DNA of 64,000 nucleotides from an uncultured Acidobacteriota bacterium (GCA_963708395.1 CAVPSG010000002.1:901100-965099), one strand, 5' to 3'. Positions 5,134 through 58,124 are shown, counted from the first letter of the stretch. The notes: generated by a model not told the origin, from the letters alone. Made by a program: numbers and translations.

Positions 5134-5175
5134 GAAGACCAAGGACCAGGGACTAAGGACCAGGGACTAGGTCCC
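5134..5175. repeat. One-armed array of GGAC-type heptamers, ending in the palindrome GGGAC-TAG-GTCCC that contains the rph stop codon
   Basis: Read directly: GAAGACC AAGGACC AGGGACT AAGGACC AGGGACT AGGTCCC. It uses the same heptamer family as the elements at 30657, 48034 and 55360. Confidence 0.8.
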
Positions 5176-11658: not shown

Positions 11659-13502
<1,844 letters not shown>

Positions 13503-16231: not shown

Positions 16232-16589
16232 TGGTGGAGGCGGCGGGAGTCGAACCCGCGTCCGGAGGCGTCACGTGAAAGGCCACTCCATGCTCAGCCT
16301 CTTCTTGGTTCTCGTCCGGCCGCCTCGAGAAGAGGCAAAACAGCGGTCAGACAACCCCGAATGGTTTTCGCCTCGGCGTCCGGGGATCCGCCTCGGCTAC
16401 ACCCGCATTTGGCGACGTTCGTCCAGGCGCGGCGGGTGCGCTCCCGGACGGACGAGGCTACTTAATTAAGCAGCCAGAGCGAGATTGCTGTTGTTCGCAG
16501 CTATCATTTTTCACCGGTTTTACGAGGTGGGTGAGACCTCGGCATGCAACCTGACTCGTGCGCGTCCCCGTCGAAACCGTTTCGCCCCC
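16232..16589 (-). ncRNA. ssrA: tmRNA (SsrA), 358 nt
   Basis: The 5' end is GGGGGCGAAACGGUUUCGACGGGG. The 3' end is CGCGGGUUCGACUCCCGCCGCCUCCACCA (tRNA-Ala-like acceptor/T-arm with CCA). The internal tag frame GCU GCG AAC AAC AGC AAU CUC GCU CUG GCU GCU UAA encodes (A)ANNSNLALAA. Confidence 0.95.
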
Positions 16590-21760: not shown

Positions 21761-23137
21761 ATGATCGCCTTCGCCTCCCTCTTTCTCGGCCTCATCGTCG
21801 GCACCCGGCCGGTCACGGTTGTCGTGGGCGCGCCCGTGGCTTCCGTCGTCTTCCAGCTCGACGGGCAGGAGGTCGGCAAGCTCTCGAAGGCGCCCTGGAC
21901 GCTCGGCGTCGACTTCGGATCGGAGTTCTCTCCGCACGAGCTCGTGGCCCGGGCGTTCGACGATCAGGGCGGCGAGATCGGCATGACGCGCCAGTGGGTG
22001 AACCTCCCGCGGCCGCCGGCCGAAGTGGAGGTGGTGCTCGAGCGCGACGCGCAGGGCCGAGCCGTCGCCGCCCACCTGACGTGGCAGAGCGTGCTCGGCG
22101 CGAAGCCGACGAAAGTCGCGGTCACCTTCGACGGCAAGCCCCTCGCTCTCGACGCGTCCCAGCGCGTGGCGCTCCCGGCCTACGACCCCGCGTCGCTCCA
22201 CGTGCTCACCGCCTCGCTGGAGTATCCCAACGACGTGCGGACCCGCAGCGACCGCGTGATCGGCGGCGGCTCGGCGAGCGAGGCAAAAACCGAGCTGACC
22301 GCCGTGCCCGTCGTGACGAAGAAGACCCGGGCGCCGAAGGTCGAGACCCTGCGCGGGCGATTCCGAAAGAAGGATGGCGAGACGCTCGAAGTCGCCGCGG
22401 TCGAGCATGGCCCGGCCGAGGTCCTCGTCGTTCGCGACCTCGACTCGAAAGAGGCGCAGCGCGCTCTGCGGCGCATCACGGGCAATCGGCCCTCCGCGGC
22501 GGGGTTCACGGGAACGACCCGCGATCCCGGTTACGGAGCGGAACGGATGACCCTCGATCCGGACGACCGCCTCCGCATTCTCTGGCCGGTGGCGAGCCAG
22601 GTCGTCGATTCGGGGATTTCCAACGAGCTCTTCGAAAGCTCGCATGCTTTCGCGGGGTGGATGAGCGATTTCCGGTTCCTGTTGACGCGCGTGGACTATC
22701 CCGGAAACGCGGAGCGTCCGCGCCGCTTCGCCGACGCCGTCGCCCTGGCGGGTTTGCGCGCTTTCGGCGGCTACTCGCGGCGCGCGGTAGTTCTGGTGCT
22801 CGCCAGCGATCCGGCCGACGAGAGCCTGTACAAGCCGGCGGCCGTGCGGCGGTATCTCGAGCTCCTGCGGGTGCCGCTCTTCGTCTGGAGCTTCTCGCCG
22901 ATGGAAAAGCGGCCCCGCGCGTTCGCCGACTGGGGGGAGATCGCGGACATCTCGACGGTGACCGGCCTCGAGCACGCCGTCGAGAAGGTGCACGACGAGC
23001 TCGAGCACCAGTCGATCGTGTGGCTCGAGGGGCGGCACCTTCCGCAGGACATCGAGCTCACGGCAGGCGGAGATGGCATGACACTGGTCGCTGTTCTGCA
23101 ACATTCGGTCGCGGCGCGAGGAGTCTCCGCGAAGTAG
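21761..23137 (+). CDS. Hypothetical protein related to VWFA-type proteins (shared N-terminal domain, degenerate VWA-like C-terminus)
   Basis: ATG 21761. The N-terminal FQLDGQEVGKLSKAPWTLGVDFG parallels FFVDGRKVGAVSAPPWEVDWPAG of 16664..17830. The C-terminal part (AVVLVLASDPADESLY...) lacks a clear MIDAS motif. Confidence 0.6.
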   Translation: MIAFASLFLGLIVGTRPVTVVVGAPVASVVFQLDGQEVGKLSKAPWTLGVDFGSEFSPHELVARAFDDQGGEIGMTRQWVNLPRPPAEVEVVLERDAQGRAVAAHLTWQSVLGAKPTKVAVTFDGKPLALDASQRVALPAYDPASLHVLTASLEYPNDVRTRSDRVIGGGSASEAKTELTAVPVVTKKTRAPKVETLRGRFRKKDGETLEVAAVEHGPAEVLVVRDLDSKEAQRALRRITGNRPSAAGFTGTTRDPGYGAERMTLDPDDRLRILWPVASQVVDSGISNELFESSHAFAGWMSDFRFLLTRVDYPGNAERPRRFADAVALAGLRAFGGYSRRAVVLVLASDPADESLYKPAAVRRYLELLRVPLFVWSFSPMEKRPRAFADWGEIADISTVTGLEHAVEKVHDELEHQSIVWLEGRHLPQDIELTAGGDGMTLVAVLQHSVAARGVSAK

Positions 23138-23606
23138 GGGCGGCCCTCGCGGCCGCCCGTCAGGCCGGGCGGGGACAAGCCCCGCCCCTACGGGCGGATG
23201 GATTGTTGGGGGCGGCCCTCGCGGCCGCCCGTCAGGCCGGGCGGGGACAAGCCCCGCCCCTACGGGCGGATGGATTGTTGGGGGCGGCCCTCGCGGCCGC
23301 CCGTCAGGCCGGGCGGGGACAAGCCCCGCCCCTACGGGCGGATGGATTGTTGGGGGCGGCCCTCGCGGCCGCCCGTCAGGCCGGGCGGGGACAAGCCCCG
23401 CCCCTACGGGCGGATGGATTGTTGGGGGCGGCCCTCGCGGCCGCCCGTCGACGCTTGGCGGGGACAAGCCCCGCCGCTACGGGATGGATGGATTGTTGGG
23501 GCCGGCCCTGGCGGCCGCCCGTTGACGCCGGGCGGGGACAAGCCCCGCCGCTACGGGATGGATGGATCGTAGGGGCGGCCCTCGCGGCCGCCCGTCAGGC
23601 CGTCAT
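23135..23606. repeat. Tandem array of a 72-74 bp GC-rich double-hairpin unit, 6 full copies plus 1 truncated (REP/BIME-like)
   Basis: Units start at 23137, 23209, 23281, 23353 (these four identical), 23425, 23499 and 23572 (truncated). Each unit has GGGCGGCC-ctcgc-GGCCGCCC and GGCGGGG-acaag-CCCCGCC stems. The outer GTAGGGGCGG / CCGCCCCTAC are also complementary. Confidence 0.9.
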
Positions 23607-29963: not shown

Positions 29964-30017
29964 AGCCGGTTCAAGCTCACGGCGACGCCGTCGCGGCGGC
30001 CGCGCTCGCAAGATAGC

Positions 30018-30045
30018 AAAAAAAAGCCCCGGCGGCGCCGGGGCT
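30018..30045 (-). terminator. Intrinsic terminator after the zinc-ribbon gene
   Basis: The minus strand reads GCCCCGGCGCCGCCGGGGC followed by UUUUUUUU. Confidence 0.8.
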
Positions 30046-30069
30046 TTCCCGAAATCGAAGGAATGGGAA

Positions 30070-30656: not shown

Positions 30657-30759
30657 CTACTCCCTAGTCCTTAGTCCCTAGTCCAAACCTCCGAGATCCA
30701 CCGTGGTCGCTCAAGGCGCCGCGACTAAGGACAAGTGACTAAGGACGAAGGACTTATCC
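30657..30759. repeat. Inverted arrays of GGAC-type heptamers (hairpin element) directly after the thiG stop
   Basis: Left arm TCCCTAG TCCTTAG TCCCTAG TCCAAAC (30661-30688). Right arm GACTAAG GACAAGT GACTAAG GACGAAG GACTTAT (30723-30757). About 16 of 19 positions pair in the best register. Confidence 0.75.
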
Positions 30760-46134: not shown

Positions 46135-46766
46135 TCAGAAACGGCGGCGCACTTCGGCGAGAACCTGGTCCCGCAGACGCCGGGTCTCTTCCTGCAGGTC
46201 CGCCGTCTCGCGCTGCATCCTTCCGACGAGCTCGGCGTCCGACACGCCGGAGAGGTTGATGCCGACGTTCAGGAGCGCCGCCTCGGCCGCCGCTTCGAGG
46301 AGGAGGGCCGCCGAGCCCGCGTCCGAGGCCGCGTTCGGGTTTCCTTTTTCGACGAGCTCGGGCAGCGAGGCGAGGAGCCTCGCGGCCGCACGGGCGGTCC
46401 GCATCGGGACCTCGGTGGCTTCCCCGGTTGGCCTCCTCGATCCGCTTTGCGCGCGCGGCCTTTTCCTCTTCGGTGCCCTTTGGCAGACGCCGCGCGGCGA
46501 CGACGAGGTCGTAGGCCTCCGAGTCTTCCCGCGCGAGGGTGAGGAATTCCCGGCGCGCCTCGCGGGCCGCCTCGGCGATCGGCCGGACGGCGTCGTGGGT
46601 CGCGGCATACTTCTCTTTCGAGAGCGTGACTCCGGCGACCATCTCGGCGAGCGCGGCGCCCATGGCCGCGGCGGCCGCGGCCGGCCGTCCCGCCTCCGGG
46701 CGTCGGCGCCTCGGAGGCGAGCGCCTCGAGGAGTTCGGCGAGCGAGAGCTTCGAAAAGTCGGTCAT
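46135..46766 (-). CDS. Formimidoyltetrahydrofolate cyclodeaminase domain protein (FTCD C-terminal type), with 2 frameshifts
   Basis: MTDFSKLSLAELLEALASEAPTPGGGTAG / MGAALAEMVAGVTLSKEKYA...EDSEAYDLVVAARRLPKGTEEEKAARAKRIEEA / ATEVPMRTARAAARLLASLPELVEKGNPNAASDAGSAALLLEAA..., read in three frames. Confidence 0.8.
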
Positions 46767-48030
46767 GACGTGCTGCCTCGGCCGCGGGGATGAGCCGGCC
46801 GCGCTGCACGACGCCCGCGACCAGGTTCACTCCCCAATGATAGATGAGGTGGCGATCGTCGGGCGCGTCGATCCAGATGACGTCGGCGGCCTTCCCCGGC
46901 TCGAGCGAGCCCGTCTCGCCGGCGAGACCCAACGATGCCGCGGCGTTCAGGGTGATCGCGGTCAGGGTCTCTTCGACGGAGAGACCCGAGTCGAGGCAGG
47001 CGTGCGCGGCGGCGGCCGGGAGGGATTCCGTCAGGCAGGTGCCGGGATTGGAGTCCGACGCCACGGCGACCGGAACGCCGGCGGCGATGAGGGCGCGGGC
47101 CGGCGCGGCCTTCGAGCGCATCCACCAGGCGGTGCCCGGAAGGATCGTCGCGATCGTTCCGGAGCGCGCGAGCGCCGCGACTTCCTCGTCGCCGATGCGC
47201 AGCAGGTGGTCGGCCGATGCCGCGCGCATTTCGCACGCCAGGAACGAGCCGCCCGACCGCGCGAGCTCGTCGGCGTGGATGCGCAGGCCGAGTCCCGCGC
47301 GCCGCCCGGCCTCGAGGATCGCCCGCGACTCGTCCACGGTGAAGACGCCTTCGTCGCAGAAGACATCGCAGAACCGCGCGAGCCTGCGCCGCGCGACCTC
47401 CGGGACGATCTCGTCCGTGATGGCGCGGACCCATTCGGCGCGGTTGGCGCGGAACTCCGGCGGGATCTCGTGCGCCGCGAGCAGCGTCGGCACGAGACGC
47501 GGCAGCTCCGGATCCCGCGCCGCCTCGGCCAGGATCTCGAGGGACCGGATCTCGTCCGCCACGGTCAGGCCGTATCCGGATTTCGCCTCGACGGTCGTCG
47601 CGCCGTGCGCGGACATGCGCGCGAGGCGCTCGCGCAGGAGGCGCGCGAGCTCTTCCGTCGAAGCCGCGCGCGTCGCACGCACCGTGGCGTTGATGCCTCC
47701 GCCGTCGGCGGCGATCGCCGCGTAGCTCTCGCCCGCGAGCCGCCGGCCGATCTCCGGGCCGCGGTCTCCGGCCCAGACGGGGTGCGTGTGGGAGTCCACG
47801 AGGCCCGGCAGGACCGTGCAGCCCGCGGCGTCGATCGAGATCTCGGCCGGATGCCCGGCGTAGCGGTTGCGGTAGTCCGCCTCGGAGCCGGCGAAGACGA
47901 TGAGGCCGTTCTCCGCACGCAGCGCCGCCCCATGGATGCGAAGGATCTCGCCCTGTTCGCGGCCCCGACGCGCAGCGCGGCCGAGGGGTGTCGCGAGAGT
48001 TGAGGCGTTGCGGATTTCGAGGGAAGACAT
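46763..48030 (-). CDS. hutI: Imidazolonepropionase. A frameshift is likely near the 3' end.
   Basis: LPGLVDSHTHPVWAG...YGLT...AHEIPPEF...IHADEL...SADHL...VASDSNPG. In the raw frame it reads through into the next gene. The alternative frame ends in ATGA at 46763-46766. Confidence 0.88.
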
Positions 48031-48033
48031 CGA

Positions 48034-48114
48034 CGACTGGGGACTAAGGACTAGGGACTAATTCGTGCTGGCGCTAAGGAACGAAATCAGTCCCTAGGCC
48101 TTAGTCCTTAGTCG
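48034..48114. repeat. Heptamer-periodic long hairpin (GGAC family) filling the divIVA-stop to hutI-start gap
   Basis: Arm 1 is CGACTGGGGACTAAGGACTAGGGACTAAT (48034-48062). Arm 2 is ATCAGTCCCTAGGCCTTAGTCCTTAGTCG (48086-48114). 25 of 29 positions are complementary, with a 23-nt loop. Confidence 0.85.
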
Positions 48115-48119
48115 GACCA

Positions 48120-48635
48120 TCAGATCGCCCCTTCCTCTTTCTCCTGCTTGCGTGTCATGTAGGAGACCGGCCGGTCCCGATCGCCTTCCTCGCGGTCGAA
48201 GTCGAGCACCTGGTGGAAGAGCTCGATCATCTTCTGGAGCTGCAGGCGGAAGTTGACGCGCTGGATCTTGAGCTCCTGAATCGCCTTCTCGATCTCCGCG
48301 GAGCGCTGCAGCGCGCTGTGCGTCAGCCGCTCGCCGGCCTCCTGCGCCTCCAGCACGATCCGCTCGGCGTCCTTCTGCGCCGCTGTCCGGATGTCCTCGG
48401 AGGCGCGCTGGGCCGTGAGCAGCGTGGCCTTCAGGATCCGCTCGCGCTCGCGATGTTCCTCGTTTTCCTCGTGGAGCTGCCGGACGCGCCCCTCGAGCTC
48501 GGAATTCGTTCGCGCGAGCTCCTCCATCTCCTCGGCGACCATGCTGAGGAAGGACTCGACCTCGACGGAATCGAGGCCTCTCCACTTGGTCGTGAATTCG
48601 TGCTTCTGGATTTCGAGGGGCGTCAGGCGAGGCAT
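48120..48635 (-). CDS. divIVA: DivIVA-domain protein
   Basis: MPRLTPLEIQKHEFTTKWRGLDSVEVESFLSMVAEEMEEL followed by a coiled coil. Confidence 0.9.
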   Translation of the reverse strand: MPRLTPLEIQKHEFTTKWRGLDSVEVESFLSMVAEEMEELARTNSELEGRVRQLHEENEEHRERERILKATLLTAQRASEDIRTAAQKDAERIVLEAQEAGERLTHSALQRSAEIEKAIQELKIQRVNFRLQLQKMIELFHQVLDFDREEGDRDRPVSYMTRKQEKEEGAI

Positions 48636-49664: not shown

Positions 49665-50075
49665 CTACCGGCGCTCGCTCGCGTCGGCGCCGAGGTTGGC
49701 CAGGCGGTCGGCGTCGCGATTCTTCTCGCGCCGCACGTGCGCGATCGAGAATCTCCGGAACCCCTTGGCGCGCCGCACGGCCTCGGAGACGAGCGGCTTC
49801 AGATGCTCCGCCTTGACGCGGTACGCGCCGTTGACCTGCTGCACGAGGAGGAGGCTGTCCGAGTAGAGCTCGACGTCCTGCACGCCGAGCTCCTCGGCGC
49901 GCGCGAGCGCGAGGAGCAGCGCCCGGTACTCGGCGACGTTGTTCGTGGCGCGCCCGAGGGCTTCGAAGTGCTCCTCGGCGGCGCCGTCGCCGCGCGGCGC
50001 GACCCACACGCCGGCGCCCGCCGGACCGGGATTGCCGCGGGCCGCGCCGTCGATGAAAGCGGTGAATTTCGCCAA
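49665..50075 (-). CDS. rnhA: Ribonuclease H (type 1)
   Basis: FIDGAARGNPGPAGAG...ATNNVAEYRALLLALARA...LYSDSLLLVQQVNG...REKNRDADRLAN. TTG start at 50075. Confidence 0.82.
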   Translation of the reverse strand: MAKFTAFIDGAARGNPGPAGAGVWVAPRGDGAAEEHFEALGRATNNVAEYRALLLALARAEELGVQDVELYSDSLLLVQQVNGAYRVKAEHLKPLVSEAVRRAKGFRRFSIAHVRREKNRDADRLANLGADASERR

Positions 50076-50160
50076 GCTGTCGGCTCTCAGCTGTCAGCTC
50101 TCAGCCGGAGCTCGAGCCGGGCGGTTCTGGCTGACAGCTGACGGCTGATGGCTGAAAGCT
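50075..50160. repeat. Heptamer-periodic long hairpin (GCTGA family) filling the gap between the zinc-ribbon gene stop and the rnhA start
   Basis: Arm 1 is AGCTGTCGGCTCTCAGCTGTCAGCTCTCAGCC (50075-50106). Arm 2 is GGCTGACAGCTGACGGCTGATGGCTGAAAGCT (50129-50160). 26 of 32 positions are complementary. The arms are built of GCTGACA/GCTGAGA-like 7-mers. Confidence 0.85.
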
Positions 50161-51018: not shown

Positions 51019-51095
51019 TGGTGGGTCCACTCGGATTCGAACCGAGGTCTGACCGGTTATGAGCCGGTGGCTCTAGACCGCTGAGCTATGGACCC
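51019..51095 (-). tRNA. tRNA-Met (anticodon CAU), elongator-like. A lysidine-modified Ile2 identity is not excluded.
   Basis: Manual cloverleaf: GGGTCCA/TGGACCC acceptor, GCTC/GAGC D stem, ACCGG-CTCATAA-CCGGT anticodon arm, CTCGG-TTCGAAT-CCGAG T arm, encoded ACCA. G1-C72 is paired and there is no GGG/CCC anticodon stem, so it is not an initiator. Confidence 0.9.
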
Positions 51096-51898: not shown

Positions 51899-53572
51899 TC
51901 AGCGGATCGTTTCGAGGAATGGGCGCAGCTTCTTGGCCCGCGAGGGGTGCCGCAGCTTCCGGAGCGCCTTCGACTCGATCTGCCGGATGCGCTCGCGCGT
52001 GACGTTGAAGGAGCGGCCGACTTCCTCGAGCGTGTGCTCGGACCCGTCGCCGACGCCGAAGCGCATCTTGAGCACCTGCTCCTCGCGCGGCGTCAAGGAC
52101 TTCAGCACGCGGCGCGTCTGGTCCTGCAGGTTCGACACGAGGACGGCGTCGATCGGCGAGAGGACCTGGCGGTCCTCGATGAAATCGCCCAGATGCGAAT
52201 CTTCTTCCTCGCCGATCGGGGTCTCGAGCGAGATCGGCTCCTGCGCGATCTTCATGATCTTGCGGACCTTGGAGACCGGCATGTCCATGCGCTTGGCGAT
52301 CTCCTCGGCGTTGGGCTCGCGGCCGAGCTCCTGCACGAGGGACCGCGACGTGCGCGTGAGCTTGTTGATCGTCTCGATCATGTGCACGGGGATGCGGATC
52401 GTGCGCGCCTGGTCGGCGATGGCGCGCGTGATCGCCTGGCGGATCCACCACGTGGCGTACGTCGAGAACTTGTATCCGCGCCGATGCTCGAACTTCTCGA
52501 CCGCCTTCATCAGGCCGATGTTGCCTTCCTGGATCAAATCGAGGAACTGGAGCCCGCGGTTCGTGTACTTCTTCGCGATCGAGACGACGAGGCGCAGGTT
52601 CGCCACGATGAGCTCGTGCTTCGCCTGGTCGGCCTCCTCCTCGCCCTCGCGCACCATGCGCTGGGTCTTCTTGACGTCTTCGTGCGTGACGCCGAACTTC
52701 ACCTCGAGCTCGCGGAGCGCCTTGCGGTACTTCGCGATGCGGCGGCGGTAGAAGTCGAGGCGCGCCGGGTTCTTTTCGCGCTTGAGCGTCAGCGTGTCCT
52801 GGCGCATCGTGGACTCGGGCACCGACATCTGGCGGTCGATGTCCCTGAGGATCCCGATCGCGCGGTTGAGGACGGCCGGTGTGAAGTCCGCCTTCCGGAT
52901 CAGGTTCGCCATCTCGGCGATGCGGCGGTCGATCGAGCTCTCGATGCGCGCCAGGGACTTGGAGCCCCGCTTGATCGTGCGCGCCTTGAACTTCATCCGC
53001 TTGATGTCTTTGTCGAGCCCGCCGATCTTCTTGAAGCTCGCGAGCACGCCCTCGATCCGGCGCGTCGCGCGGTCGTCCATCTCCTCCTCTTCCGCTTCGT
53101 CGGAGGGATTGATGAGCTCCTTGACCATGCGGGCGTCGCGGCCGGCGCTCTCGAGGAGTTTCAGGATCTCTTCGAGGACGACCGGGTTGTTGGCGAGCGC
53201 CTGGTAAATCTTGGCCTCACCCTGTTCGATGCGCTTGGCGATGCGGACCTCGCCCTCGCGGTCGAGCAGCTTGACCGTACCCATCTCGCGCAGATACATG
53301 CGCACGGGGTCGTTGGTCTTCTCGACGGCCTCGCGGGCTTCCTCGGCCGACTCGGCCTCGAGCGCCGCCCGGCGGCGCGCCGCGCGGTCCGGATCGGTGA
53401 CGATCTCGACGCCGAGGTCGAAGAGGCGCACGTACACTTCCTCGAGGTCCATCGGAGTTCCCGTGACCTCGTCGGACAGGACGGTCTGCATCTCTTCGTA
53501 GAGCAGGTAGCCCTTCTCCTTGCCCACGCGCAGGAGAGCCGCAACCTCGGGGTACCGTTCCTCAATCACCAA
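51899..53572 (-). CDS. rpoD: Primary RNA polymerase sigma factor (sigma-70)
   Basis: ...[74 protein letters not shown]...[30 protein letters not shown]. Confidence 0.97.
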
Positions 53573-55355
53573 GCTCGTTTCCTTTCCGGGAGGACTTCAG
53601 CTCCGCGATCCTCCGGTCGGTGGCCATCTTCTTCCGCAGCAACTCGTTGTCTTCCGGCGAGCGTCCGATCGCCGCGAGCAATGCGGCGCTCTCCCGCCGG
53701 AGGTAGTCCTGTTCCAATTTGTCGAGCACCTGAGTCACCCGCTGGGTGGTCGGCTCGAGCCCTTCCTCGGTAACCGCCTGAGCCAGGAGATTCTTCTGAT
53801 CGTCGTTAAGGTGGGCGATTATCCTCTGAAAATCAACAGGTTCCGACGCCCTCTCGGCCCGAAAGGCGGCCGCGATGGCGCGGACACCGTCCCGGGAGAG
53901 CCAATCGTCATTCAAGCGCCCTAGAATCAGAGAGATATGCTCGCCCCCCCGCACCAGGATCGGTAGCAACGCACTCTCGGCATCCGGAATTCCCCCGTCG
54001 GGTAACACAGCTTTCGACGGCGCCGTTCCCGCCGAGGCCCGTGGAGGCGCCCCCGCCGTGCGCGGCTTGATCCGGTCCCAGAGAACCTCGAGCGGAACCG
54101 CGACGGACTCCGCCACCCTCCGGCATTCCTCGTGCCGGAGGATCGAGTCCGGTATCTCCTTTACGCTGTCGAGGAGGCCGGCGATTCGCGCGCTCCGCTC
54201 GGCCGCGGAGATGCCGTGCTCGGCGGGGTGCACCTCCTCGAGGAGCCAGGCCAGGAAGTCGGGCGCCCCGGCGATCCGGGCGGCGAGATCGGCTGGGCCG
54301 GCGCGCTGGAGGACGTCGTCCGGGTCCTCGCCCGGCGGCATTCGCGCGACCGCGACGGACAGGCCCTGCGCCAGGCACAGCCCGATCGCCGCGCGGGTCG
54401 CCGACCGGCCGGCCGGGTCGCCGTCGTAGCAGAGGATGACGCGCTCGCAGAGCCGCCGCAGTTTCTCCGCCTGTTCGGGAGTCAGCGCCGTGCCCATCGT
54501 CGCGACGGTCTCCTCGACGCCGGCGCGCACGAGCGCCAGGTGGTCGAAGTAGCCCTCGACCAGGACCGTCCGCTCCTGCCGGCGGATGGCGTCGCGCGCC
54601 TGCGAGAGCCCGTAGAGCGTCCGCTTCTTGTGGAAGAGCGGCGTCTCGGGCGAGTTCAGGTATTTCGGCTCCTGCCCGTCGGCGAGCGCGCGGCCGCCGA
54701 AACCGACGGCCCGGCCGCGGTCGTCGCGGAGCACGAAGAGGAGACGATTGCGGAAGCGGTCGTACGCACCCTTGGTGTCGGCCCGGGGCTGCAGCAACCC
54801 CGCCTCGACGAGGAGCGCCTCGGGGAAGTCGCCCGAGAGGCGCCGCGCGAGCGCGTCCCACGAGTCGGGCGCGTATCCGAGCCCGAGGTGCCGGCGCATC
54901 TCCTCCGGCACGCCGCGCCCCTCGAGATACGCGGCCGCGGGATTCTTCGGTTTGTCGAGCTCTCCCGCGTAGAAGCCCTGTGCGCGCGCGACGGCCTCGA
55001 GCAGCTGCTCGCGCCGGTCGTCGCGCGGGCCGCGGGCGCGCTTCGGGATCGCGACGCCGAATCGGCCGGCGAGCGCCTCGACGGCCTCCGGGAAATCCAG
55101 GCGGTCGATCTGGCGCACGAAGTGGATGACGTCGCCGCCCGCGCCGCAGCCGAAGCAGTGGTACAGGCCCTTCTCGCGGTCCACGGTGAACGACGGCGTC
55201 CGCTCGTTGTGGAAGGGGCAGAGACCCTTCCAGGAGCGCCCGGCCTTTTTCAGCCGCGTGTGCTCGCCGATCACCTCGATGATGTCGGCGGCGCTGCGCA
55301 GCTCGGCCAGCACGCGGTCGTTGATGTCGAGATCGCTCATGCAGTCTGTTGCCAT
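53562..55355 (-). CDS. dnaG: DNA primase
   Basis: [34 protein letters not shown] (zinc finger), then the Toprim region [12 protein letters not shown]...ATMGTALT...YDGDPAG. Confidence 0.95.
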
Positions 55356-55359
55356 TCTA

Positions 55360-55431
55360 GACTAAGGACTAAGGACTAGGGACTCCTTCTTCTTGATCCA
55401 ATCATTTGTCCGTAGTCCTTGGTCCCTAGTC
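55360..55431. repeat. Heptamer-periodic long hairpin (GGAC family) filling the mutS2-stop to dnaG-start gap
   Basis: Arm 1 is GACTAAGGACTAAGGACTAGGGAC (55360-55383). Arm 2 is GTCCGTAGTCCTTGGTCCCTAGTC (55408-55431). 21 of 24 positions are complementary, with a 24-nt loop. Confidence 0.85.
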
Positions 55432-55433
55432 GA

Positions 55434-57840
55434 TCACTTGAGTTCCACAATGGTCGCTCCATTCCCGCCTTCGCGCGCGTCCGCGGCGCGGATCGAGGAC
55501 ACGGCGCGATGGCCGCGCAGGTGCTCGCGGAGCCCGTCGCGCAGCCGTCCCGTGCCGTGCCCGTGCACGATGCGCAGACGCGCGTCGCCGGCCACGATGG
55601 TTGCGTCGATCGCGCGCTCGACCTCCTCGATCGCGTCGTCGAGATGCTTTCCGATGACGTGGACTTCGAGCGTCCTCGCCGCGAGGCCCGGCCCGGCGAC
55701 CGGTTGTTTCTGCGAGCGCGGCGGAGCCGGCGGCGCCGGGCGCCCTCCACCGGCCGACTCGACGTCCGAACGTTTCCAGCGCATGCGCTTGCCGGCGACT
55801 TCGAGCCACACGGTGTCGCCCTCGATCGCGCGCACGATGCCCTCCGTCTTCGAGCCGGAGAGCCGCGCGCGTGCGCCGACAAGGAGCTCGCGCGAGCGCT
55901 CTTCCGAAAACGCCTCGGCCTCGGCGAGCACGGTCTCCTCGGCCGCGGTCTCCCGCTCGGCCGTGTCGAGGACGCGGGACGCCGACGCCTGCGCCAGGCG
56001 CGCGGTGTCCTGCCGGATGCGCGAGAGCTCGTCGGCCACCTCGCGCGCGAGCTTGGCGCGGGCGCGCTCGAATCCGGACTTGCCTTCCTCGAGGAGCTTC
56101 GCGCGCTCTCGCGCGAGCGCTTCGCGCTCGTTCGCCAGGTGCGCCGCCTCCGCCGCGGCCCGGCCGCGTTCCTCCGCCGCCGCCTGCTCGAGCCGGCGCA
56201 GCCGCTCCAGCGCCGCCTCCGCCTCCGACTCGGTCTTCTCGCGCCGCCGCCAGGCCTCGCCCAGGATCTCGCGTGCCCGCGCGAGGACCGGCTCCGGAAT
56301 CCCGCGCTCCTCCGCCACGGCCAGCGCGTGGCTCCTCCCCGAGAGGCCCGGATGGAGGCGATAGTTCGGGGCGCCGGTCTCCTCATCGAACTCCATCGCC
56401 GCGCAGACGGCGTCGTCGCGCCCGGCGGCGAGGTTCTTGACTGCCGAGAGATGCGTCGTGACGATCGCGCGTCCGCCGCGTGCGAGCAGCGCTTCGAGCC
56501 ATGCGACCGCGAGGGCGCTCCCTTCCTCGGGATCCGTCGCGCCGCCAATCTCGTCCACGAGCGCCAGGGCGCCCGGTCCGGCGCCGGCCAGGATCTCCGC
56601 GAGGATCTCCATCGAGGAGGAGAAGGTCGAGCGGTCGGAGAGGATCGCCTGGGCGTCGCCGATCTCGGCCGCCGCGGAGGTGAAGACCGGCAGGCGCGTG
56701 CCGGGCCCGGCGGGAACCGGGAATCCGGACTGTGCCAGCAGCGTGAAGAGCCCGGCGGTCTTCAGGACCACGGTCTTGCCGCCGGCGTTCGGGCCGGAAA
56801 CGACGAGGAGGCGCTGATTCGGCGCGAGCTCGAGATCGAGCGGCACGGCGTCGCGGGCGGGGCGCGACTCTTCGAGCACGCGGCGCCGCAGGGGCGCGAG
56901 CCGGCCGTCGAGGAGCGGATGCCGCGCGGCGCGCAGGACCCAGGAGCCGTCCTCCGAGATCTCCGGCAGGCGGCCTTCCGACAGTTCCCCGAACTCGACG
57001 CGCGCCTCGAGCGCGTCGAGCGCGGCGAGGCGGCCGACGGCGCGCAGGAGGTCGGGGGACGCATCGAGCACGAGCCCACCGAACTCGGCGAGCAGCCGCT
57101 CGACCTCGCGCCGCTCTTCGGCCGCCGCGAGCGCGAGGTCGTTGTTGGCCTCGACGACCTCGAGGGGCTCGACGAAGACGGTCTGGCCCGATCCCGAGCG
57201 ATCGTGCACGATCCCGGGCACGCGCCCGCGGGCCGAGGCGAGGACGGGCAGGCAATAGCGGTCGTTGCGCTGAACGAGGAGCGCCTCGCCGAGCGCGTCG
57301 CGGCGATCCTCGAGGAGCTTCGACATCCGGCGCGTCACCTCGCCGCGCCGGCGGCGCAGGCGCGCGCGCAGTTCCTTCAGGCGCGGCGACGCGTCGTCGG
57401 AGACCGCGCCGTCGGCCGTGAAGAGGCGACGCGCCCTGTCGAGGAGGGCTTCGAATCGCGGCAGCGCGTCGCGGTGCGCGGAGAGCGCCGGCGTGTCCGC
57501 GCGCTCGAGAAACCGCCGCACGGCTTCCGACGCGCGCGCCGTCGCGAGGATCGGCCGGAAGTCCTCGGGCGCCCCGTAGCCGGCGGCCCCCTCGAGCATC
57601 GCGAGCGCCGGCGCGAGATCGGTCACGCCGGCGAGCGGCAGGCGGCCGTGCGCCGCGCGGAAGGTCCAGACTTCCGAAGTCTCGGCCAGACGCCCGCGCA
57701 CCTCGGCGTCGTCGAACGACGGGTGCGTGCGTCGGATCGCCTCCTGGCCGGGGATCGAGCGGGCGAGGGAGGAAACGAGGCGGAGGACGACGTCGAGCTC
57801 GAGGACCGAGGCGACGTCGCCCGCCGCGAAGGGGGAGTCG
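55434..57840 (-). CDS. mutS2: Endonuclease MutS2 (MutS domain V ATPase plus C-terminal Smr domain). The start codon is unresolved.
   Basis: VVSGPNAGGKTVVLKT...STFSSSMEIL...LVDEIGGATDPEEG...TTHL, and the Smr tail LEVHVIGKHLDDAIEEVERAID...LRIVHGHGTGRLR. There is no ATG, GTG or TTG between the rpsU stop and the conserved N-terminus, so the 5' coordinate is approximate. Confidence 0.88.
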
Positions 57841-57847
57841 GACTCGG

Positions 57848-58054
57848 CTAGATGTTGGCCCGCCGCTCTTCGGCGAGCTTGCGAAGCATCTTCTTGCGCG
57901 CCTGGATCATCTTGCGCTTGCGCTTCGCGCTCGGTTTCTCGTAGTGCTGCCGTTTCTTCAGCTCCGACAGGATGCCGGACTTTTCGCACTTGCGCTTGAA
58001 GCGGCGCATCGCGTTTTCGAAGGATTCGTCTTCCTTGACGTGGACGAGAGGCAC
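57848..58054 (-). CDS. rpsU: 30S ribosomal protein S21
   Basis: (M)[50 protein letters not shown] start, SD AAGGGGGTGA. Confidence 0.95.
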
Positions 58055-58094
58055 GAACAGTCACCCCCTTCACCGTGGCTTTCGAGAGCTCGAC

Positions 58095-58124
58095 ATCATA
58101 TTTTCGCCCCGCAGGGACTGTCAA
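58095..58124 (-). promoter_or_regulatory. Sigma-70-type promoter upstream of rpsU
   Basis: The minus strand reads TTGACA (58124-58119), an 18-nt spacer, then TATGAT (58100-58095), about 40 nt upstream of the rpsU start. Confidence 0.6.

Follow-up and report, generated by a model that had tools for sequence, protein, structure and literature searches.

The window analysed here is the whole 64,000-nt stretch of DNA from an uncultured Acidobacteriota bacterium, and the element under study is a long hairpin of heptanucleotide repeats located between a DivIVA-domain gene and a gene for an imidazolonepropionase-like amidohydrolase (hutI-like, hereafter hutI). Close homologues of the DivIVA protein were labelled Thermoanaerobaculia (Acidobacteria) by their sources, and the genome is a member of the Thermoanaerobaculia (Acidobacteriota). 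It is designated W below; L-numbers (L121, L125 and so on) refer to related loci used for comparison. The junction is organised as follows, in the direction of transcription.

48120 to 48122, minus strand: stop codon TGA of the DivIVA-domain gene (open reading frame (ORF) 48120-48635; Pfam).
48085 to 48114, minus strand: 5' arm on the mRNA, sense sequence CGACTAAGGACTAAGGCCTAGGGACTGATT, about four GGACTAR-type units, beginning 5 nt past the DivIVA stop.
48064 to 48084, minus strand: loop of 21 nt, dissimilar to the loops of other GGACTAR copies.
48034 to 48063, minus strand: 3' arm on the mRNA, sense sequence AATTAGTCCCTAGTCCTTAGTCCCCAGTCG, TAGTCCY units, finishing 3 nt short of the hutI ATG.
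48028 to 48030, minus strand: ATG of hutI (Pfam), whose MSSLEIRN N-terminus is kept in relatives.

On the minus strand the order is thus DivIVA TGA, 5 nt, arm CGACTAAGGACTAAGGCCTAGGGACTG, loop, arm TAGTCCCTAGTCCTTAGTCCCCAGTCG, 3 nt and hutI ATG. The gap measures 89 nt (48031-48119) and is nearly filled by the hairpin, as the first-pass annotation had stated. A repeat search delimited inverted arms of 30 nt each, 87% complementary and spaced by 21 nt, essentially the hairpin with 25 of 29 paired positions described beforehand; it is the longest close inverted repeat anywhere in the window. Both arms were recognised by Tandem Repeats Finder (TRF) as arrays of period 7 (48041-48061 and 48089-48113), and GGACTARGGACTA, with up to two mismatches allowed, had 23 matches in the window (expected 0.48, shuffle maximum three), which confirmed the periodic GGACTAR composition. 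The sense RNA folded at -47.5 kcal/mol (z = -8.2), a value equalled in none of 200 shuffles. Variable positions of the units were mostly mismatched in W, giving regular internal loops of 1-2 nt in the folds; the arms are low-complexity arrays whose alignment register is ambiguous.

No free Shine-Dalgarno (SD) sequence occurs between the stem and the hutI ATG, as read directly in the sequence and in agreement with the earlier description. The likeness of the two arms to SD and anti-SD sequences, also noted there, arises because of the GGA core of GGACTAR; it is absent from the AGCTGAR family described below and does not extend to AATTGAG, GATTTGT and the further heptamers found at the same junctions in relatives, and the idea was dropped.

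Four other sites in the window harbored heptamer arrays.

55359 to 55432 (arms 55359-55385 and 55406-55432), minus strand: second GGACTAR hairpin, -34.5 kcal/mol, z -5.2, in the MutS2/Smr-DnaG gap.
30657 to 30755 (arms 30657-30684 and 30722-30755), minus strand: third GGACTAR hairpin, -45.2 kcal/mol, z -2.7, downstream of thiG.
5137 to 5171, minus strand: single direct GGACYAR array without inverted partner, z -0.1, which does not fold.
50075 to 50160, minus strand: hairpin of a second family, TCAGCYN / AGCTGAR, -48.7 kcal/mol, z -4.8, in the gap between the Zn-ribbon/CT398-like gene and the RNase HI gene.

Within 64 kb, GGACTAR was therefore found at four sites and AGCTGAR at one, the latter being the second family of the same architecture that had been announced. 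The first two GGACTAR relatives proposed earlier were retained as hairpins; the one at 5134-5175 turned out to be a lone direct array. TRF arrays of period 7 were also found at 55360-55384, 30657-30684, 30723-30754 and 5137-5171. The RNase PH stop TAG (window 5167-5171) lies inside the first GGACYAR unit of the lone array, so that the repeat reaches into the 3' end of the gene.

Each of the five sites is flanked by minus-strand ORFs and located 0-6 nt from a stop codon, and three of them also 0-3 nt from a start codon. The recurring layout of stop, hairpin and start claimed earlier thus held for three of the five and not for the remaining ones. At 55359-55432, the MutS2/Smr TGA and 1 nt precede the stem and the first DnaG ATG comes 1 nt after it, although the second ATG, 15 nt further downstream, may instead be the DnaG start. 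The 50075-50160 hairpin spans the interval from the base after the Zn-ribbon/CT398-like stop up to the RNase HI TTG start. The 30657-30755 hairpin stands outside any stop-to-start gap, with no adjoining start codon and the next gene about 290 nt away. Its arm order is reversed: on either strand it opens with the TAGTCC arm, where the other two open with the GGACTA arm, so that it cannot be obtained by flipping one element. Co-directional minus-strand neighbours were correctly noted at all five sites; they say little because almost all genes of the window are on the minus strand.

Four of the short intergenic gaps of the window stood out by folding z, namely the three filled by heptamer hairpins (-9.2, -7.6 and -4.0) and one holding a canonical terminator (-5.0). 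Hairpin-filled gaps were AT-richer (GC 0.46-0.65) than the genome (about 70% GC). Among the three GGACTAR hairpins in W, only the heptamer arrays align, loops and flanks being unrelated. All four W hairpins contain at least one stop codon in each of the three frames on both strands.

The same junctions were compared in 57 related loci. Gene order was kept (S21, MutS2, DnaG, RpoD, tRNA, Zn-ribbon, RNase H, YggS, YggT, DivIVA, hutI, FTCD_C, PolA), and the corresponding junctions in syntenic relatives were usually 0-25 nt long or overlapping. Between DivIVA and hutI, a repeat-free gap of 15-17 nt was found in L121-123, L126, L174 and L176. In L125 (6355-6400), L135, L151 and L152, the stretch from the in-frame stop to SLEIRN, the conserved N-terminus of hutI, is devoid of ATG, GTG and TTG, and the sole candidate start is a CTG overlapping the DivIVA TGA (CTGA); this arrangement suggests CTG initiation or termination-reinitiation in these four loci. 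From the empty or CTGA-overlapping junctions of relatives (stop and start 0-17 nt apart or overlapping), it follows that DivIVA and hutI form one translationally coupled unit to which the W hairpin is an addition, and the intra-operon position assigned at first pass was thereby corroborated.

DNA of the RNaseH-DivIVA region gave the tree ((W, L125), L178), (L174, L121). The GGACTAR element of the DivIVA-hutI junction was present in W, reduced to a degenerate, non-folding remnant in L178, and absent from L174, L121 and even L125, the sister of W at 93% nucleotide identity. The AGCTGAR hairpin between the Zn-ribbon and RNase H genes was found in W, L125, L178 and L174 and was cleanly absent in L121, the sister of L174; the same family occupies this junction in L165 and L147. 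Hairpins therefore survive across nucleotide divergence of about 13-18%, but also disappear completely. The AGCTGAR loops of W, L125, L174, L178, L165 and L147 are unrelated. The MutS2-DnaG hairpin was restricted to W among the relatives seen, the gap of L174 being 15 nt there. Overlapping stop/start junctions (dnaG to rpoD, yggS to yggT) were never expanded. Orthologous hairpins in the independent assemblies L125, L174, L178 and L165 mean that the elements are no assembly artefact, a possibility raised at the outset.

Other lineages displayed different heptamers at the same places. Between DivIVA and hutI, inverted or direct arrays were built of AATTGAG/AGTTGAG (L165), GATTTGT (L148, L139), AGCTGAR (L143), TTCTTAG and CTATCAG (L132) or GAAATTC (L134). 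The junction between the Zn-ribbon and RNase H genes was 3-25 nt long in most lineages; it carried an inverted pair of GGGAATC in L132, CGGAAAA in L141 and a GAGCCGC-like unit in L156, and GTCTCAA was also among the units occupying these junctions in other lineages. L165, with about 70% DNA identity to W, had heptamer hairpins at the three W junctions, with other units at two of them. In several loci, the downstream start codon is formed by or abuts the last unit, as in GCTGATG of L125 and L165 and AGCTTG of W and L147.

The DivIVA-hutI junction also harbored inserts of other kinds. L133 (1405-1495) departs from the 7-nt rule with a hairpin whose arms repeat every 8 nt (ATCGGGYG units). A perfect, non-periodic inverted repeat of 25 nt reaches exactly from TAG to ATG in L161 (10514-10640). 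Non-heptamer inserts were also found in L140, L142, L147, L158 and L160, and in L136, L153 and L159. One insert family in relatives, of about 200 nt, has CAGCCCGCGAGTCCCGCGGC...GGGGTCAGGTCTTCGGTTTTCGGAGCTC in common; another is based on CCCGAGG/GGGATCCC. Judged by these sequences, small structured inserts have a general hotspot at this junction.

Heptamers clearly dominated the short tandem arrays. In 383 kb of the clade, 15 arrays had period 7, against zero to six for any one of the remaining periods between 4 and 15; in 886 kb of loci from many phyla, 281 arrays of period 7 were counted and at most 21 at any other period from 5 to 12. In the AGCTGAR hairpin of L174, TCCGC has replaced TCAGC in each of the four 5'-arm units and in just two on the 3' side; changes are therefore propagated within an arm more quickly than the opposite arm comes to match them, which amounts to concerted evolution within arms. 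Comparison of 18 hairpins on both strands gave better folding of the sense strand in ten and of the antisense strand in eight, so that the symmetry resides in the DNA, and the hairpins compared gave no G-U sign that the transcribed strand is under selection. Stop triplets were enriched in heptamer units generally (34% vs 15% in shuffles, counting both strands; none of 500 shuffles was as high). The stop triplet was considered as a conserved core and rejected, as degenerate flanking units did not preferentially conserve TAR; it remains a weak lead.

Ends were shared within families. The three G-rich arrays of W all open with CGACTAR, and AGCTGAR elements have GAGCTTTCAGC...GCTGAMAGCTC in common, including the L143 copy at another junction, which hints that arrays were copied and did not arise separately at each place. 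An origin in situ from the ancestral spacer GTCCCGGGGC, inspected by eye, was discarded because of the unsuitable arm order. A scan of genome contigs found triple GGACTAR arrays at no fewer than 120 loci in many phyla, with an inverted partner in 22 of 120 among the matches listed. Viral contigs contained GGACTAR at 12 loci and two permuted control heptamers at 3 and 20; as the controls were about as frequent, special enrichment or horizontal spread of GGACTAR was not retained as a claim.

Taken together, the element is probably best regarded as a DNA heptamer repeat prone to gain and loss which would uncouple or lower translation of hutI relative to divIVA. Its dynamics can be read with assurance from the compared sequences, which document lineage-specific gain, loss of whole hairpins, turnover of units within arms and survival at particular non-overlapping stop/start junctions. 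An effect on the operon mRNA is proposed more tentatively: masking of the hutI start, stops in all frames, a possible barrier or RNase site, and uncoupled or lowered downstream translation.

In such a scheme the repeat comes and goes at a junction that was ancestrally 0-17 nt long and translationally coupled, and its arms change unit by unit, alterations running along one arm as replication slippage would yield, with occasional deletion of the whole hairpin. On the polycistronic mRNA, an imperfect stem of about 30 bp would rise directly past the divIVA stop and end at the hutI ATG. The region where hutI translation is initiated would thus be buried; the stem supplies stop codons in all three frames and could serve the upstream cistron as a 3' barrier or as a site for a double-strand RNase, but would not terminate transcription. 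As the net outcome, hutI translation would be decoupled from that of divIVA or lowered relative to it, in the manner of repetitive extragenic palindromic (REP) elements. Since the two ends of the stem are adjacent, a hairpin spanning the interval from stop to start would disturb a coupled junction least, and its exact fit to the gap may mean no more than that junctions of this type tolerate an insert of that shape.

Several points weigh against this reading. The influence on hutI, RNA processing and coupling is purely inferred. The 18 hairpins gave no RNA-strand-specific signal and the variable positions in W are mostly mismatched and not compensated, so that selection on RNA structure is not demonstrated; most relatives have no hairpin, so that any role is dispensable. 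Slippage alone accounts neither for one unit at four sites within 64 kb nor for the inverted arrangement, and the shared array ends of both families point to copying. Enrichment of stop triplets may merely reflect exclusion from coding DNA, and degenerate flanking units do not preferentially keep TAR.

The alternative that survives best, though an unlikely one, is a functionless passenger, produced by slippage and template switching at small palindromes and surviving where it is harmless, with no selected effect. It would suit the presence or absence of hairpins among close relatives with clean losses, the variety of unrelated units sharing the same permissive sites, the folding without strand bias, the homogenisation within arms and the similar frequency of permuted control heptamers in viral loci. 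However, a stem of -47 kcal/mol against a start codon would hardly be neutral for translation, and the AGCTGAR hairpin was retained over the divergence given above. The identical three junctions occupied in W and the distant L165, the recurrence of one unit at four sites and the AT-richness of the filled gaps within a GC-rich genome also speak against mere passengers.

A mobile hairpin of the kind of MITEs (miniature inverted-repeat transposable elements) or REPINs (REP doublets forming hairpins), with the heptamer arrays as terminal inverted repeats and a transposase encoded elsewhere, was suggested in the first-pass annotation and appears improbable. Several dispersed copies, polymorphism in presence and absence and the ends shared within families are in line with mobility. 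Against it, the three W copies have unrelated loops and flanks, unit numbers vary, one genome holds both arm orders, a state that flipping could not produce, one copy has a single arm, and a partner was found in just 22 of the 120 cross-phylum GGACTAR arrays, among the matches listed. No target duplication was seen at the flanks TGGTC|...|TCGATG, TGAT|...|AATG and GTGTAG|...|TTGGCG, and none was evident between filled and empty sites in the pairs W/L126, W/L174 and L174/L121. Neither the GGACTAR copies of W nor the six AGCTGAR loci have a conserved internal sequence as in MITEs, and alignment of the W copies revealed neither the shared conserved palindrome nor the similar spacers of REPs and REPINs. 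The flanking genes checked in the window were housekeeping genes. The suggestion thus failed the comparisons made.

Slightly less credible still is that the hairpins are installed or maintained by a lineage-restricted mechanism and act as translational "bridges and insulators". This rests on three junctions that bear hairpins both in W and in the distant L165, most relatives having none. The stem would keep stop and start codons adjacent, so that ribosomes that have terminated could re-initiate some 80 nt further on; as 7 is coprime with 3, the period would place stops in all frames; and the paired initiation region would prevent independent initiation. If true, this would constitute a new means of enforcing or tuning translational coupling and a reason for the excess of 7-nt repeats in bacteria.

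There is little to recommend the idea that the array, as DNA or as single-stranded RNA, is bound by a trans-acting protein, such as one of the cold-shock, S1 or CsrA type, which would recognise a core of 5-6 nt every 7 nt. The core is conserved with one or two variable positions per unit, each unit of the GGACTAR family contains GGA, a trans factor could account for hairpin-rich and hairpin-poor genomes, and binding was likewise proposed for TAACTGA (PMC4679880) and in bioRxiv 10.1101/2022.06.06.494920. Nevertheless, at least two to three unrelated units occur per genome, with three families at three junctions in L165, and the cores are base-paired in the hairpin and therefore unavailable as single strands.

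It is very improbable that the hairpin is a terminator or attenuator of transcription or a G-quadruplex (G4) element. The stem is very stable, and a terminator before dnaG would fit the low primase levels known from the E. coli rpsU-dnaG-rpoD operon; however, no T-run follows any hairpin, the genome employs canonical U-tailed terminators, a scan for promoter and terminator consensus sequences at the hairpins found no sites, and junctions of relatives are overlapping or 15 nt long, so that the downstream gene relies on read-through. Terminator and promoter readings were both rejected for want of consensus sites and a following T-run. GGGNATC-type heptamers form G4 in vitro (PMC4692102), for which four or more consecutive tracts of at least three G are needed; neither GGACTAR nor AGCTGAR provides them, the G-rich arm CGACTGGGGACTAAGGACTAGGGACTAATT having only three G-runs of two or more (4, 2 and 3), never four runs of three, and AGCTGAR none.

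Other features of the window were as follows. A canonical U-tailed intrinsic terminator (AAAGCCCCGGCGCCGCCGGGGCUUUUUUUU) lies at 30012-30069 (minus strand); GATTCCC/ATTCCTT/CGATTTC, upstream of it, resembles a decayed array of the Xanthomonas GGGAATC type. Positions 23137-23602 hold a 72-nt unit in 6.4 tandem copies with 94% matches, which displays G+C-rich inverted repeats (GGGGCGGCC...GGCCGCCC and GGGCGGGGACAAGCCCCGCCC). A partial copy is found at 12954-12977 (minus strand) and a related single copy fills the DivIVA-hutI gap of L150 (3380-3445); by sequence, the unit looks like a second, REP-like dispersed family of the clade.

The "hutI" ORF (46135-48030, minus strand, 631 aa) is no true fusion. 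Compared with L121, it displays a 1-nt indel just before the hutI stop (around 46750), followed by an out-of-frame Arg-rich run-on; near residue 534 the ORF is back in the frame of FTCD_C, whose conserved start (ATGACCGAC...) is preserved in another frame. This frame break reflects either two indel errors of the assembly (possibly a metagenome-assembled genome from long reads) or decaying genes. A MutS2/Smr gene (53562-58124) stands between rpsU (S21) and dnaG, as in L121, L124 and L174, in an otherwise classic rpsU-dnaG-rpoD order; its ORF counts 896 aa in W vs 722-803 aa in relatives and is therefore probably over-extended at the 5' end. A strong sigma-70-like site is located at 58124-58095 (minus strand). 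The window also contains a tmRNA gene (16232-16589, minus strand, 177.8 bits) and a tRNA gene (51022-51095, minus strand), the latter between rpoD and the Zn-ribbon gene as in relatives.

Heptanucleotide repeats, the most abundant longer simple repeats in many bacteria, have been without accepted origin or function for 35 years. The present locus adds a new phylum and a natural series, in which the same gene junctions recur in dozens of related lineages, each of them empty, filled by one heptamer hairpin or filled by a hairpin of a different heptamer. Gains, losses and unit turnover can be dated in this series, and pairs of junctions with and without hairpin are suited to testing its influence on expression of the downstream gene. 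Annotation is concerned as well: hairpins shift or mask start codons, and gene callers will miscall starts in last units and the possible CTG starts overlapping TGA.

Judged by its sequence, the element can be assigned with high confidence to known repeats, as an inverted pair of tandem heptanucleotide arrays resembling the short tandemly repeated repetitive (STRR) sequences, a kind of long simple sequence repeat (LSSR), with the unit GGACTAR (= RRGGACT). It had not been recognised as a described repeat family; heptanucleotide repeats near ORF ends and their convergent pairs have, in fact, been described (PMC4692102, PMC4679880). Unit and host are new, the class of element is not. As in LSSRs, 7-nt units are repeated at least three times per array, arrays lie in non-coding DNA near ORF ends between co-directional ORFs, and repeats are present, absent or variable in length between constant flanking genes. 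As in Xanthomonas, nearby arrays on opposite strands can form a stem-loop; in W, both arm orders are present. At least two heptamer families coexist in this Thermoanaerobaculia genome. Rfam 15 recognised only the tmRNA and one tRNA above gathering score in the whole window, and only sub-threshold matches to miRNA precursors at the hairpins (16.7-30 bits vs gathering scores of 49-91); by E-value, too, no family was matched there.

STRR heptamers are classic in heterocystous cyanobacteria, where they form intergenic tandem arrays in many copies per genome. The unit of cyanobacterial STRR1, reportedly described by Mazel et al. in 1990, is CCCCAGT (= GGGGACT), one or two bases apart from RRGGACT, the rotated GGACTAR. 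GGACTAR arrays themselves were found in genomes of Nostocales and Oscillatoriales. Heptanucleotide repeats are also described for Nostoc, where inverted array pairs are few (PMC4692102), in contrast to W, where three of the four GGACTAR sites are inverted pairs.

Tandem heptamers were the commonest longer simple repeats in many bacteria according to Mrazek 2007, as summarised in PMC4679880; the dominance of period 7 in the loci counted above agrees with this. In Xanthomonas, Rehm et al. 2015 counted about 185 GGGAATC arrays per genome, 70-75 of them convergent pairs capable of forming stem-loops (PMC4692102). The arrays typically comprise about four units, are over-represented in non-coding DNA and prefer gaps between aligned ORFs, less than 50 bp from ORF ends; their context is kept across species, their length and sequence vary, transcripts cover the majority, and no function is known for them (PMC4692102). 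The elements of W resemble them in tandem 7-nt units, about four per array, in convergent pairs and in their location in gaps of co-directional ORFs, and the GGGAATC unit itself was encountered in the inverted pair of L132. They differ in their units (GGACTAR and AGCTGAR, not G4-capable) and in their host, the Acidobacteriota. In addition, hairpins here span precisely the interval from stop to start, at junctions that relatives have empty or overlapping, and several unrelated units recur at one junction across lineages.

In marine Beggiatoaceae (MacGregor 2015), TAACTGA arrays abut start codons in two to six copies within a few nt; canonical ribosome-binding sites are few, the unit yields stops, its phylogenetic distribution is scattered, and a translational role was proposed, not shown (PMC4679880). 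Of these sets, 169 were direct and one indirect, without predicted structure (PMC4679880). Heptamer arrays abutting start codons are also reported in bioRxiv 10.1101/2022.06.06.494920; in a Nostoc preprint, heptamer arrays overlap start codons and reporter effects were modest. The likeness lies in a stop-bearing heptamer close to start codons; nearly all TAACTGA sets are direct and unstructured, in contrast to the mostly inverted pairs and very stable stems found here.

Correia elements of Neisseria, an example of MITEs inside operons, are small, dispersed, bounded by inverted repeats and located between co-transcribed genes, and their long mRNA hairpins are cut by RNase III. They differ by a conserved interior, defined terminal inverted repeats and a TA target duplication, none of which was found here.

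REP elements and the bacterial interspersed mosaic elements (BIMEs) built from them are extragenic palindromes between co-transcribed genes, which act as barriers to 3' exonucleases and cause differential expression within operons. REPs located less than 15 nt from a stop codon disturb termination. They are conserved imperfect palindromes of 20-40 nt with family-wide sequence identity and are associated with a RAYT (REP-associated tyrosine transposase). For REP/BIME and REPINs, Newbury 1987, Liang, Rudd and Deutscher 2015 and Bertels and Rainey 2011 are said to be the sources. The elements of W differ from them as periodic arrays with unit-level turnover and unrelated loops; by analogy, REP elements are nonetheless the best functional counterpart of the hairpins described here.

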